9,305 bases of DNA from a virus (lineage: Duplodnaviria > Heunggongvirae > Uroviricota > Caudoviricetes). Below are positions 1 through 5,180 of this stretch, piece after piece. The stretch lies in IMG/VR virus record IMGVR_UViG_2711768006_000002. The stretch is one strand, 5' to 3'. How positions within the stretch are numbered: the first letter of the stretch is position 1; the number at the start of each line of letters is the position of its first letter. The notes under the pieces are model-generated. The model was not told where the DNA came from. It searched no databases and saw only the letters and a list, made by a program, of their open reading frames with translations. Made by a program: the position numbers and the translations under genes.

Positions 1-12
1 TCCAATGTGCAT

Positions 13-46
13 AAAAAAATCCGGAAACAAGTGAGCGTTTCCGGAT
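13..46 (-). terminator. Intrinsic terminator immediately downstream of the portal gene
   Basis: On the minus strand a perfect 10-bp inverted repeat (plus 19-28 ATCCGGAAAC / 37-46 GTTTCCGGAT) with an 8-nt loop is followed by a T-run (plus A-run 13-18). The portal stop codon is at 80-82. Confidence 0.6.
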
Positions 47-79
47 TCTTACACAGCCACTGGATCGGTCAACTGATCC

Positions 80-1236
80 TTAACTGATCGGCATTACACC
101 ACCGGGACGCGGATTCATATCTTCCAGGTCGCGGCAGTCATTGGAAGAGTAAATTCCCCAGTTGATCCCGGTGGCGTAGGCTTCAAAACGGGACTTCATA
201 TCCCCGCGCAGTAACGCCCCGGCGTTAAATTTGGCGTAATAAACGCCCTGCTTACTTTTTCGTACCAGTCCGGTGTTGATCCGCTGTTCGATGCGGGTCA
301 GATACGGCACCAGTGAATAGTTGATAAATCCCAGCCCCAGCTCTTCGATATTGTTGAAGGTGGCGCGATCGGTGTTCTGCACCATGTGCAACGGCACCCG
401 GAACAGACGACAGATTTCTTCCAGCTGAAACTTGCGGGTTTCCAGGAACTGACTGTCCTCGGCGTTCAGCGCCATCGACTTCCAGTCCAGCCCCATTTCC
501 AGAATCATCGGGCGGTGAGCATTGCCAAGCCCCGTGTGACACTCCTCAAAATCTTTCTTCAGACGCTCGTAAGCATCCGGCGTGAGCTTTTGTTCCGTAC
601 GCAACACACCGGATGTCACCGCACCATTACTAAACAACCTGGCACCGTGCTCCTCGGTTGCCGCTGCCAGTGAAATGGCCTCACGCGCATACGCAATGGG
701 ATTCAGCCCGACAAGTCCATCCAGCGTCAGGGTGCGCACATGCCAGATTTCATTCTGGGTCAACACATCCACGGAACCATCCGGAAACGTCACCTGATAA
801 ACCGGCTGCCACTGGCTGTTCAGCTTCGGTTCCACACAGCCCGGATCTATCGGAAGAAGCTCCACCACTTCTCCCAGTGCCTTTACCTTGTAGGCGTAAA
901 AATTCCCCCGTAGACACAGGCAGACAATAACCAGCTCCCAGAATTCCTGCGGTGTCATGTAGCCATTAGGTTTTGCCGAAACCAACTTATGCAGTCGTTC
1001 ATCCACCGCCCGTGTTTTCAGGGTACCGCTGATTTTGTAGAGACTGCAGGGCAGCATACCAACAGACTCTGCCAGCACCCTGACGCAAGAATAGACCGCC
1101 GTCAGGCGCATGGCCCGCTGGCTACTGATCCGCTTTCCGGTATAGGTGTCGTATGACAGCCCGATAGCATCAGCAGTTCTGCTGGCGTGGTCACCGGCAC
1201 ATCGCTTTTTCGTTGAAATAATCCCGAAAAGAACAC
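80..1236 (-). CDS. Phage portal protein, HK97 family; 5' end apparently frameshifted, start uncertain
   Basis: The 415-aa ORF contains a portal-like core (AMRLTAVYSCVRVLAESVGMLPCSLYK near the N-terminus, NDCRDLEDMNPRPGG at the C-terminus). The ORF-track start at 1327 is a TTG in a TTG-TTG-TTG run with no RBS and overlaps the upstream small ORF by 92 nt. A GTG at 1236-1234 overlaps the upstream stop (TAGTG) and has GGAGGT 5 nt upstream, but it is in another frame that stops at about 1105. The first in-frame ATG is at 1111. Confidence 0.8.
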
Positions 1237-1418
1237 TATTTACCTCCGCCGACAGACTGCCGTGTACGGTCGAGATATCGCGCCACCAGCCACGACCAGA
1301 ACAGGCACAGCGCCCCGGCAACAACAAAACCCGCCGGGGGATAAATCAGCCAGGCACCATACGCCAGCAAAAGCGCACCCAGCACGCCCACCAGAGGCGC
1401 GAGAATCAGCATGATCAT
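1236..1418 (-). CDS. Small membrane protein (60 aa, two predicted transmembrane helices) between large terminase and portal
   Basis: ATG at 1418 with GAGGT 4-5 nt upstream, 11 nt after the large-terminase stop. The product [60 protein letters not shown] is hydrophobic with a basic C-terminus. No homolog recalled. Confidence 0.5.
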
Positions 1419-1429
1419 AATTACCTCAG

Positions 1430-3163
1430 TTAAAGCGAGCGGATCCCGTAGGACTCAATGTGGTCAGACAGCGTGTCTTCTTTCTCGTACAGCATGGCTC
1501 TGCCAACCGCCATAATCAGCGCAACTGCACCATCGATTTTGTTTTCCGCCTGCTCTTTGACGGGTTTCACCACATCATCGTTACCCGGCATGTTTTTGCC
1601 GACCACGTTGCCGATACACCAGGTCATGATGGGATTGCCGTCATGATGAAAACGTCCCGATTCAATCGCTGCTTCCAGCTCTTTCATCGGATCGGACATA
1701 TTGGTGAAGTTCTGGACGATAGTGACGGGATTCAGGTCTTCATCAGCAAGGTCATGTGACAACCCGGTCGCCCCGAAGGGGTCGATGGGTGACTCACTGA
1801 CCGGGCTGATTTTGTTCGCCGCTTTGGCCTCCTCGAGGATGTAGCGATAATCCACCTCCGCACCATCGGTAACGGTCAGAACGCCCATTTCCACCCATTT
1901 CTGAAAGCGTTCGGCTGTCCGTCGATCTTCATTTTTCTCGACGCTGTACACCGTGTCATACGGTACCCAGAAACGCGGGGCCACACTGTAGTAATGCGTT
2001 TTACCGTCAATCTCGCGGGTATAAAGTCGCGCCATGCTGTTCATATCCAGCTTACGCGCCAGGTCAAAGGCCAGAATGCACGGCTGCCCCTCGAACTGCT
2101 CAAGGGTCAGTGATTTATCCTCGCAGCTCTGCCAGCTCACCAAGTTGAAATACGCCGAACGCGCCGACACCCAGATATTGAGGTGTTTTGTTTTAAAGAC
2201 GTTTGCCAGACGGGCGTTATTTTTCGCACGCTGCTGCTGACTTAACAAAAATTCGCGATAAACCGACACGCCAATATTTGGATTGGCTTTTTCCAGCACC
2301 TGCGGGCCGGTCCAGTCGTCACCTTCATCAACGGTATAGATGATCCCGAACAGTTCATCGTTAGGCACCGAGCCGTTGAGCATCTCGATGACTTCCCGCC
2401 GCTTGTCGTAGCACGGCCCCTCAATGTTGTACCCGGCGGTGGTGATGGCCCACATCAGTGGCTGACGTCGCGCCCCCATCCCGGTAAGCATTGTGGTATA
2501 AAGCGCATCGGTGGCATGCTCGTGATATTCATCAACCACGGCACAGTGGGGTGATGAACCATCACCTGGGTTGCCGATCAGCGGTTCAAACCGCGCGCCA
2601 TCCTCCGGACGGTTCATGTTTGAGGCGTTAACCTCAATCCCGAACGCTTCCGTCAGCATGGGTGTGCGTTTACACATCAGTCGCGCCGGGCGAAAGACTT
2701 CCCACGCCTGTTTCTCTGTCGTGGCACCGGAATACACTTCCGCGCCAAACTCGTTATCACAGGCAAAACAATACAGGGCAACACCGGCAGAGATTGCTGA
2801 TTTGCCGTTCTTACGGGGGATTTCGGTGTACACCTCCCGGAAGCGGCGCAACCGGGTGCCTTTATTGACCCAGCCAAACGCACAGCAGATCACAAATAGC
2901 TGCCACGGCTCCAGCGTGATGGGCATCCGTTTGAATGCCCACTCCCCCTTGGTGTGCGGCAACAGCTGAATAAATTTCGCGGCCCGTTCAGCCAGGTCCT
3001 TGTCGAAGCGGTAACGAAACGACTTACTTTTTTCCGCCATCAGGTCATCAAGATGGCGCTGGCAGGCCTGAATCACAAACTGGCAGGCAACAATCTTTCC
3101 GCGCACGACATCCCGGGCATACTGATTTGCAGCATTTACGTTGGGGTAAGATTTCCGGCTCAT
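1430..3163 (-). CDS. Terminase large subunit (Terminase_1 / HK97-like)
   Basis: 577-aa ORF with an ATG at 3163 overlapping the upstream stop (ATGA). It has a Walker-A-like PRKNGKS motif and the overall architecture of large terminases. It lies directly after the small terminase and before the portal. Confidence 0.92.
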
Positions 3164-3654
3164 GATTCGATAATTTTCAGAAACGGGTTAGTGGCTTTCT
3201 TCTGCCCCGCCAGGCCAATCAGACGCTGGCGGCTGCTGGGGTCGAGTCCGAGCATTGCCCCCGTGCTGCTCATCTCGGACTCCTGTTCTTTTTTGGCGGT
3301 CAGCTCCGGATTTTTGACCCTGCCGCCCATTGCACCGGTGATGGTGTTGCCCTGTATGGCAATATTTTTCACGGCACGTCGCCAGAACTCATAGGCCACG
3401 CACCACCGCTCAAGTACCGCCAGGTCAGTCACGCACAGCAGGCCCTGACCGCAGAGTTCTTTGGTTGTCAGTTGCCACATGATCGTGGCGAGAGGGAGAT
3501 CTTCTTCAGCGAACCACTCTGGTGGCTCAACACCTTTGATGGGCGTAAAAACAGGTTCATCTTTGTTCAGGGCTCGCTTGCCGGGGTTTCCGGCCAGCGC
3601 CTTGCGCGCCGTTGGCTTGGGGCGACGCCCGGAACGCCCCGCCGTTCCAGCCAT
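3160..3654 (-). CDS. Terminase small subunit, P27 family
   Basis: The ORF track starts at GTG 3663, but that GTG lies inside the Shine-Dalgarno sequence AGGAGT. The ATG at 3654 is 8 nt downstream of AGGAG and gives [27 protein letters not shown], typical of P27-family small terminases. The stop overlaps the large-terminase start. Confidence 0.88.
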
Positions 3655-3693
3655 ATGCGGCACTCCTGGTTAAATTTCATTTTTCGCGGGTAT

Positions 3694-4168: not shown

Positions 4169-4411
4169 CTACTTAATGCACTGAGTGCGGATATACTCCT
4201 GTGCCCCTTCCAGTTGCATCTGCATCGTCATCAGCCGCTCTCTGAGGGTGAAATAATCCCGTTCAGCGGTGTCTGCCAGTCGGGGGCTGGTTGCATTATC
4301 CACGCCGGAGGCGGTGGTGGCTTCACGCACTGACTGACAGACTGCTTTGATGTGCAACCGACGACGACCAGCGGCAACATCAGCGCGCAGAGTTTCATTT
4401 TCAGCTTTCGC
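4169..4411 (-). CDS. Rz: Rz i-spanin, C-terminal portion (5' part lost in N run)
   Basis: The visible 80 aa (AKAENETLRADVAAGRRRLHIKAVCQSVREATTASGVDNATSPRLADTAERDYFTLRERLMTMQMQLEGAQEYIRTQCIK) are near-identical to the C-terminal half of lambda Rz as I recall it. Stop TAG at 4169-4171. Confidence 0.88.
   Translation of the reverse strand, partial: AKAENETLRADVAAGRRRLHIKAVCQSVREATTASGVDNATSPRLADTAERDYFTLRERLMTMQMQLEGAQEYIRTQCIK
4231..4398 (-). CDS. Rz1: Rz1 o-spanin lipoprotein embedded in Rz in the +1 frame
   Basis: Product MKLCALMLPLVVVGCTSKQSVSQCVKPPPPPAWIMQPAPDWQTPLNGIISPSESG has a lipobox (VVGC) and a penta-proline tract, matching lambda Rz1. The true start may lie 1-5 codons upstream inside the N run (lambda Rz1 begins MLKLKMM). 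Confidence 0.85.
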   Translation of the reverse strand: MKLCALMLPLVVVGCTSKQSVSQCVKPPPPPAWIMQPAPDWQTPLNGIISPSESG

Positions 4412-4610
4412 NNNNNNNNNNNNNNNNNNNNNNNNNNNNNNNNNNNNNNNNNNNNNNNNNNNNNNNNNNNNNNNNNNNNNNNNNNNNNNNNNNNNNNNNN
4501 NNNNNNNNNNNNNNNNNNNNNNNNNNNNNNNNNNNNNNNNNNNNNNNNNNNNNNNNNNNNNNNNNNNNNNNNNNNNNNNNNNNNNNNNNNNNNNNNNNNN
4601 NNNNNNNNNN
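4412..4610. other. Run of 199 N (assembly gap or masked segment)
   Basis: Continuous N. The flanking reading frames cannot be joined: the endolysin N-terminus is above it and the Rz C-terminus below it, in different frames, with about 600 nt of expected coding sequence unaccounted for. Confidence 0.95.
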
Positions 4611-4700
4611 ACCACCTGGGCCAGTGATTAACACAGATGCTATAGCAACAGCCCCACCACCAATAGCAGCTGCAACAGCCTTGCGTAATGATGGCGACAT
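4611..4700 (-). CDS. R: SAR endolysin (phage 21 R21-like lysozyme), N-terminal 30 codons only
   Basis: ATG at 4700 with GAGGTG 4 nt upstream. The product [30 protein letters not shown] matches the signal-anchor-release domain of phage 21 endolysin. The stop of the upstream holin overlaps the start (TAATG). Confidence 0.8.
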
Positions 4701-4867
4701 TATTCACCTCTCGCAGCCTTACGCTTGTCTTCTCTTATTTTGAAATACAGATTTGTCAGATAAGTCAGAAGCCCCAGAAGCAGACTTCCCAGCACACCAA
4801 TCGCAGCCCACTGTGATGGACTGACCTGATCCAACCACTGCAAAAACCAGTAGCCGGCACTGCCGGC
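4700..4867 (-). CDS. S: Pinholin (phage 21 S21-like class II holin), C-terminal 55 codons; 5' end lost in N run
   Basis: The visible [55 protein letters not shown] is near-identical to the S21 pinholin as recalled. Stop TAA at 4700-4702. Confidence 0.82.
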
Positions 4868-5117
4868 NNNNNNNNNNNNNNNNNNNNNNNNNNNNNNNNN
4901 NNNNNNNNNNNNNNNNNNNNNNNNNNNNNNNNNNNNNNNNNNNNNNNNNNNNNNNNNNNNNNNNNNNNNNNNNNNNNNNNNNNNNNNNNNNNNNNNNNNN
5001 NNNNNNNNNNNNNNNNNNNNNNNNNNNNNNNNNNNNNNNNNNNNNNNNNNNNNNNNNNNNNNNNNNNNNNNNNNNNNNNNNNNNNNNNNNNNNNNNNNNN
5101 NNNNNNNNNNNNNNNNN
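4868..5117. other. Run of 250 N (assembly gap or masked segment)
   Basis: Continuous N lying between the tRNA array and the holin. It hides the holin start (about 16 codons) and roughly 200 nt or more of upstream sequence. Confidence 0.95.
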
Positions 5118-5180
5118 GAGTCAGACATTCCCACACAATATTGTGTCAGTGCAAATAACAACCTTCGTCTCAAATCTCGC

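Follow-up and report, generated by a model that had tools for sequence, protein, structure and literature searches.

The prophage gene ymfR encodes a predicted membrane hairpin that is kept between the large terminase and portal genes and diverges with the portal

We analysed a 9,305-nucleotide stretch of viral DNA from the Caudoviricetes (IMG/VR record IMGVR_UViG_2711768006_000002), hereafter the window, with a focus on a 60-amino-acid open reading frame (ORF) at positions 1236–1418 on the minus strand, between the genes for the large terminase subunit (terL) and the portal protein. The ORF is the already named prophage gene ymfR, and the window copy is an ordinary one with nothing new about it. 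ymfR is a genuine protein-coding gene under purifying selection, and across mosaic genomes the YmfR-type protein stays in place and diverges with the portal, not with terL. This protein is part of a large superfamily of helical hairpins of 45–90 amino acids, without a name so far, which nearly always occupy the slot between terL and HK97-type portal genes (PF04860). On balance and with modest confidence, we propose from these patterns that YmfR would be a late-made inner-membrane hairpin serving the portal/head module in lytic growth, not the lysogen.

The original prediction had described a real 60-amino-acid ORF with a ribosome-binding site, two hydrophobic helices and a stop codon overlapping the portal start, and all of these features were borne out. 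The coding sequence runs from an ATG at 1418–1416 to a TAG at 1238–1236, and its assignment draws on the ORF list and the sequence, a match to the protein family phrog_502, the ymfR annotation in E. coli relatives and the substitution pattern described below. A Shine–Dalgarno sequence, GAGG, can be read 5 nucleotides before the ATG (1424–1427, minus strand) and is identical in E. coli BS15R-A, ST64B and phiP27; the gap between the terL stop codon (TAA, 1432–1430) and the ymfR ATG is 11 nucleotides. At the other end, the ymfR stop codon and the portal start codon GTG (1234–1236, minus strand), which is the annotated portal start in relatives, have one G in common in the sequence TAGTG. This 1-nucleotide overlap is annotated in E. 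coli BS15R-A and in phiP27, and ST64B has an identical TAGTG junction at the DNA level. The portal Shine–Dalgarno sequence, GGAGG (1243–1247, minus strand), lies 6 nucleotides from the GTG, within the ymfR codons for the C-terminal Gly-Gly. Translational coupling to the portal, also part of the original prediction, is implied by the overlap together with this embedded signal.

The predicted protein is small and very hydrophobic. Its grand average of hydropathy of +1.16 is the highest among the 76 open frames of at least 50 amino acids in the window, and the hydropathy profile shows hydrophobic segments at residues ~2–25 and ~31–46. An AlphaFold2 model based on a 99-sequence alignment is a helical hairpin with helices at residues 2–25 and 27–57 (mean predicted local distance difference test score 85.6). 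Hydropathy, the model and the conserved alignment columns together place helix 1 at residues 2–25 (1344–1415, minus strand), with conserved G11, G14, G21 and W23, and the hydrophobic core of helix 2 at residues 31–46 (1281–1328, minus strand), with conserved G35, C38 and W41-S-W43. Between them, alignments and representative sequences define a tight turn, Y26-P-P-A-G30 (1329–1343, minus strand), which is the most conserved motif of the superfamily. Residues 50–57 vary freely, and the C-terminal tail after helix 2 is basic and variable. Over the 99 aligned family sequences, the mean net charge is +0.98 for the N-terminal tail, +1.03 for the C-terminal tail and about zero for the turn. Because both tails are basic and the turn is uncharged, the positive-inside rule predicts that both ends of the hairpin are cytoplasmic (N-in/C-in) and that the PPAG turn, with its aromatic flanks, faces the periplasm. 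The glycine-rich helix faces suggest that YmfR may oligomerise. Foldseek searches with the YmfR model gave no match in the PDB, and in BFVD they returned only uncharacterised small phage proteins at E values of at least 0.047, the fold being too simple to inform.

The identity of the gene was clear from sequence searches. YmfR matched phrog_502 ("membrane protein") with E=2.8e-28, residues 1–55 aligning to profile positions 3–57 of 58, and it was 88–97% identical to many E. coli proteins; Pfam and NCBIfam models gave sub-threshold noise only. At the DNA level, the junction matched 1,604 of 5,426 complete E. coli genomes, in which the Prokaryotic Genome Annotation Pipeline gives the order terminase large subunit, ymfR, phage portal protein. 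It also matched the phages phiP27 (gene L37), ST64B (Sb3), SfI, SfII, SfIV and 118970_sal3. The K-12 gene ymfR (b1150) lies in the cryptic prophage e14, flanked by ymfN/aaaE, the remnant of a terminase gene, and beeE, that of a portal gene, and thus in a slot like that of the window. Its product, annotated as "IPR020297 domain-containing protein" and likewise a member of phrog_502, differs from the window protein at few residues and resembles it in its length of 60 amino acids and its 1-nucleotide overlap. The window copy differs from e14 in sitting in another mosaic, with SfV-like small terminase (terS) and terL genes, and beside a portal gene that is frameshifted and cut by an IS4 insertion sequence, none of which is a material difference. 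The window protein therefore shows all the marks of the YmfR family, namely a full-length match, about 60 amino acids in two helices with a YPPAG turn, and the terL–portal slot with a stop/start overlap.

Conservation of the protein argues that its sequence matters. A protein search yielded 166 clusters at 90% identity across Enterobacterales, and the family keeps a length of 59–61 amino acids down to 58% identity. In divergent pairs, the ratio of nonsynonymous to synonymous substitution rates (dN/dS) of ymfR was 0.12–0.25, with dS values of ~1.2–1.9, which are saturated; for terL and portal the ratio was 0.02–0.09. One could suppose that the peptide has no function and that the ORF is a spacer or translational coupler passing ribosomes from terL to the portal start, and the close packing of the ORF against both neighbours, with the portal Shine–Dalgarno sequence embedded in its 3′ end, would suit such a role. 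We regard this as very improbable in view of the dN/dS values, the conservation of a specific motif over hundreds of divergent sequences from several host phyla, and phage HK97, which couples terL to portal directly without a small ORF. For one detail of the sequence, constraint at a further level is likely. Throughout the enteric clade G58 and G59 do not vary, and the C-terminal Gly-Gly codons (window 1239–1247) coincide with the portal GGAGG; the constraint on them may therefore act on the DNA, as a dual coding and regulatory one.

The window itself contains a mosaic joint that separates ymfR from terL. Sliding identity showed that terS and terL are 95–100% SfV-like, with a switch at ~1460–1560, at the 3′ end of terL. 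Beyond it, ymfR and the 5′ block of the portal gene are 91–100% identical to phiP27 and ST64B, whose terL genes are only ~60–85% identical to that of the window. SfV (NC_003444) has a near-identical terL, a different portal and, between them, a different member of the family. This SfV member is an unannotated 53-amino-acid two-helix ORF (MKSLIADVIGLAGFGLL...) at 2289–2450, whose ATG overlaps the terL stop codon. It matched phrog_7105 with E=3e-22 and phrog_502 with E=6e-6, and scored 23.5 bits against a hidden Markov model (HMM) of the superfamily described below; a BLASTP comparison of YmfR with this ORF was not significant, so that the relationship is visible by profiles only. From the comparison with homologues, the annotated SfV portal start (2392) is probably too far upstream, and a GTG at ~2440 fits better.

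The same pattern held in a broader comparison. Across 39 loci, divergence of the small protein correlated with that of the portal (partial Spearman 0.44; Mantel p=0.001) and hardly with that of terL (0.11), and in all 14 pairs with portal–terL discordance the small protein followed the portal.

We also searched a profile of the enteric family against 1.84 billion representative sequences at E<=1e-3. The search returned 411 representatives (at 50% identity), almost all of 45–90 amino acids and with a common core motif, and a Pfam scan of 10 distant members gave sub-threshold noise only. Loci were located with a degenerate DNA pattern back-translated from the core motif (~55 bits), which found 69 viral contigs and 16 bacterial genomes, 85 loci altogether; the bacterial genomes belong to Alpha-, Beta- and Gammaproteobacteria and include one metagenome-assembled genome of Solirubrobacteraceae. 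Among these motif-selected loci, the downstream ORF was a Phage_portal gene in 59 of 60 non-redundant cases and the upstream ORF was TerL in 32 of 33. The downstream start lay at −1 nucleotide relative to the stop of the small ORF in 54 of 76 loci and at −4 nucleotides in 14 of 76. A tblastn search of deposited phages with two distant small proteins gave no match, probably owing to the low-complexity filter. A few superfamily proteins of ~100–120 amino acids (P0153, P0177, P0187 and P0198) consist of two tandem copies of the hairpin, an arrangement which suggests that the functional unit may be at least a dimer.

To estimate how often the slot is filled, loci were also sampled from the portal side. 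A tblastn search of deposited phages with the portal protein matched 2,059 records, from which 15 host-diverse junctions were taken at an even spread of the ranking and regardless of the presence of a small ORF; the sample is small and non-random. Phage 2851 was dropped because the gene upstream of its match was not terL. Six of the 15 phages carry a member: Vibrio K302, Ralstonia YO107_1, E. coli 640R1, Pseudomonas IME307, Mycobacterium Baka (gp7) and Bacillus phi105 (gp03). Their members scored 13–27 bits against the superfamily HMM, every other ORF in the slot scored at most 0.2 bits, and none of 500 shuffles reached the real scores (z=7–25), which are thus not compositional. Reversed sequences, D3 orf3 and the window holin scored about zero. 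The 61-amino-acid "membrane protein" gp3 of phiE125 is a clear member, at 41.6 bits. The statement in the original prediction that HK97-type modules normally have no gene between terL and portal thus holds for HK97 itself and fails in general.

Other phages fill the slot differently. D3 orf3 (2107–2271) was considered as a member, having 54 amino acids, two helices and a place between terL and portal, and was rejected at −1.9 bits. In IME307, a D3-like phage, the slot holds a 74-amino-acid ORF (2222–2446) that scores 13.3 bits, and the two slot ORFs reflect either extreme divergence or independent recruitment. Non-hydrophobic ORFs were seen in the slot of a Streptococcus suis phage (125 amino acids, 2073–2450) and of Phrann (69 amino acids, 2037–2246). 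Small genes of more than one kind thus recur in this slot.

In the window, ymfR lies in a Q-dependent lambdoid late operon. On the minus strand, genes for a DnaB-like helicase, RusA, the antiterminator Q, an ORF6N protein, a P21-type holin and Rz lie upstream, followed by HNH, terS, terL, ymfR and portal. The large terminase gene (1430–3163, minus strand) was recognised by the Pfam domains TerL_ATPase and TerL_nuclease, and the small terminase gene of the P27 family (Terminase_4; 3160–3663, minus strand), annotated alike in relatives, lies upstream in the same late operon as ymfR. Divergent members in Enterobacter, Klebsiella and E. coli have the order HNH, terS, terL, small ORF, portal, S78 protease and capsid.

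This context bears on the suggestion in the original prediction that ymfR is an inserted cargo gene. As cargo, or a moron, it would give the lysogen an advantage through a small protein of the inner membrane, for example by keeping out the DNA of superinfecting phages. A small inner-membrane protein encoded within a structural operon can indeed act as an exclusion factor; HK97 gp15, which blocks DNA entry, does so, and it resembles YmfR in being such a protein encoded amid genes for head and tail. In PHROGs, phrog_502 is placed in the category "moron, auxiliary metabolic gene and host takeover", although this placement is the conventional one for a "membrane protein" and no evidence in itself. 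Morons, however, have their own promoter and terminator, a distinct composition and a sporadic distribution, and ymfR has none of these. A consensus scan near ymfR found no terminator-like site on the minus strand, and a minus-strand scan for sigma-70-like promoters found none close upstream, the sole promoter-like site being a weak 9/12 match ~500 nucleotides upstream, inside terL. Its GC content (0.607; 0.672 at third codon positions) does not deviate from that of terL (0.542 and 0.647) and terS (0.587 and 0.655). Absence of the ORF or disruption of its frame in close relatives, named in the original prediction as an outcome that would refute it, was not seen: ymfR was at the junction in all close relatives examined, and in SfV the slot holds another family member. 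The deep synteny across phyla, with 59 of 60 loci adjoining portal, and the co-variation with portal also argue against cargo, and in PADLOC-DB no family matched YmfR, the SfV ORF, phiE125 gp3 or D3 orf3 at E<=1. Finally, ymfR is intact in two defective prophages, K-12 e14 and that of the window, as a gene useful to the lysogen might be, but the survival of a 183-nucleotide gene beside a broken 1.2-kb neighbour is expected from target size alone. We therefore consider the cargo reading unlikely, and the description of ymfR as an inserted gene was not upheld.

The damage to the neighbouring gene can be traced in detail. The portal remnant (98–1236, minus strand; Phage_portal PF04860, E=3.3e-107) was delimited by Pfam, alignments and frame analysis. 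Relative to E. coli BS15R-A, ST64B and phiP27, it has a 1-bp deletion between 1175 and 1174 (AGAACT-GCTGATGC vs AGAGCTGGCGGATGC), 62 nucleotides downstream of the portal GTG, and the GTG frame stops after 44 codons, at 1102. The listed portal ORF at 80–1327 is the post-frameshift frame, extended upstream by chance. Portal homology ends at ~98, 28 codons before the normal stop, and window positions 1–100 match, with 100% identity, the end of an IS4 element that 2,591 E. coli genomes contain. An IS4 insertion at ~98–100 has therefore cut the portal gene, which makes the prophage a defective one. With a portal partner that is both frameshifted and interrupted by IS4, the window ymfR is an intact relic, and given its size of 183 nucleotides its survival needs no special explanation.

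A second alternative is that YmfR is holin-like or acts in lysis timing, as a class II-like protein with two transmembrane domains that acts late in infection, either on the membrane itself, by permeabilising or depolarising it, or on the true holin, as a modulator. Its small size, two transmembrane helices, predicted N-in/C-in topology, basic C-terminal tail, glycine-rich helices and late-operon position fit this idea, and class II holins and the pinholin S21 share with YmfR the small size, two transmembrane helices, basic cytoplasmic C-tail and late expression (the latter features being predicted for YmfR). They differ in having no detectable sequence relationship to it, and YmfR lies outside the lysis cassette. 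No Pfam holin family matched YmfR at E<=1, and the window already has a P21-type holin (Phage_holin_2_1, E=2.8e-27) in an upstream lysis cassette that looks complete; this holin scored only 1.6 bits against the superfamily HMM. In addition, a ymfR-type gene was never found beside an endolysin gene, adjoining portal instead at all but one of the 60 non-redundant loci. A holin-like role is thus likewise unlikely. A dual-start motif (Met1/Met3) of the antiholin kind was considered and rejected, as Met3 is not conserved. The lysis cassette (holin and Rz) lies at ~4169–5173, upstream of HNH and terS, and parts of it are masked by runs of N at 4412–4610 (199 bases) and 4868–5117 (250 bases), the flanks of which encode Rz (Phage_lysis) and the C-terminal 55 amino acids of the P21-type holin (Phage_holin_2_1).

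A further alternative places the protein in the virion, as a hydrophobic hairpin that would enter the capsid or neck together with the portal and, once released on infection, help DNA to cross the host membrane. Co-inheritance and coupling with the portal would fit, and the hydrophobicity of the protein is sufficient for insertion into a target membrane. No hairpin protein of the YmfR kind is known from HK97-type capsids, which speaks against this reading. Mass spectrometry of phage Omega identified 17 virion proteins (PMC3706429), and Omega gp12, a weak superfamily member at 20 bits, is not among them, in a test that is nearly blind, since the only sizeable tryptic peptide of gp12 has 51 hydrophobic residues and is therefore nearly invisible to the method. 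We regard a virion or ejection role as quite unlikely.

The reading that we favour is that of a portal-associated membrane hairpin. YmfR would be synthesised late, with its translation coupled to that of the portal, would insert into the inner membrane as an N-in/C-in hairpin, and would act for the portal/head module in the lytic cycle, not for the lysogen. As a membrane tether or chaperone that the phage can do without, it could concentrate portal subunits or nucleate assembly of the portal ring at the cytoplasmic membrane. This mechanism, drawn by analogy, is speculative, and taken on its own we hold it to be possible though doubtful. The analogy is with T4, in which assembly of the gp20 portal initiator takes place on the inner membrane, together with gp40, and the initiator makes contact with YidC (PMC9958956). 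As proposed for YmfR, the T4 case involves a membrane-associated phage factor that is devoted to the portal and is not required in every case. The likeness is one of proposed function, and the T4 gp40 gene is not known to adjoin gene 20.

Several points weigh against this reading. In HK97, terL and portal overlap directly and the small ORF is absent, and nine of the 15 phages in the portal-side sample have no member; the protein is therefore not essential for an HK97-type portal. The linkage to portal could arise from adjacency and overlapping coding and not from interaction, and tight coupling is common throughout phage late operons. Beyond the enteric clade, a canonical Shine–Dalgarno sequence inside the small ORF was present in only 20 of 55 overlapping loci. 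Portals with a partner tend to have a hydrophobic N-terminus (MFFSGLF, MLLDALF, MFLSKLL, VSFFSRIF and MLLERMF), and an N-terminus resembling MFFxxLF was found in 9 of 12 portals with a partner versus about 2 of 8 without, a small and phylogenetically non-independent sample that makes this a weak lead. A literature search on ymfR, sb3 and transmembrane genes between terminase and portal found no functional study, and ymfR itself appears solely in lists of genes lost with e14.

Annotation of the family is inconsistent, its genes being labelled "membrane protein", "hypothetical" or "head-tail joining protein W" or, as in SfV, not annotated at all. The label "head-tail joining protein W" was seen on a YmfR homologue in ON470584, PQ793804, ON470603 and ON470580. 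It appears to be a positional mis-annotation transferred from lambda, where gpW has a similar length and its gene occupies the corresponding slot, between A (terL) and B (portal). The lambda protein differs in being soluble and unrelated, scoring −1.2 bits against the superfamily HMM.

What may merit following up in these results is the family pattern, a portal-coupled membrane hairpin with no Pfam family that occurs in phages of very distant hosts. At its widest, the proposal would make the YmfR superfamily an unrecognised and ancient accessory of the HK97-type head module, carried by ~40% of phages with such a module across Proteobacteria, Actinobacteria and Firmicutes, that anchors or nucleates the portal dodecamer at the cytoplasmic membrane; we give this version rather little weight. 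If it were true, membrane-initiated procapsid assembly, documented essentially for T4 only, would be widespread among tailed phages. How scaffold-less HK97-like capsids recruit the portal as their single nucleating vertex is poorly understood, and a membrane protein dedicated to the portal would offer a concrete and testable handle on this step.

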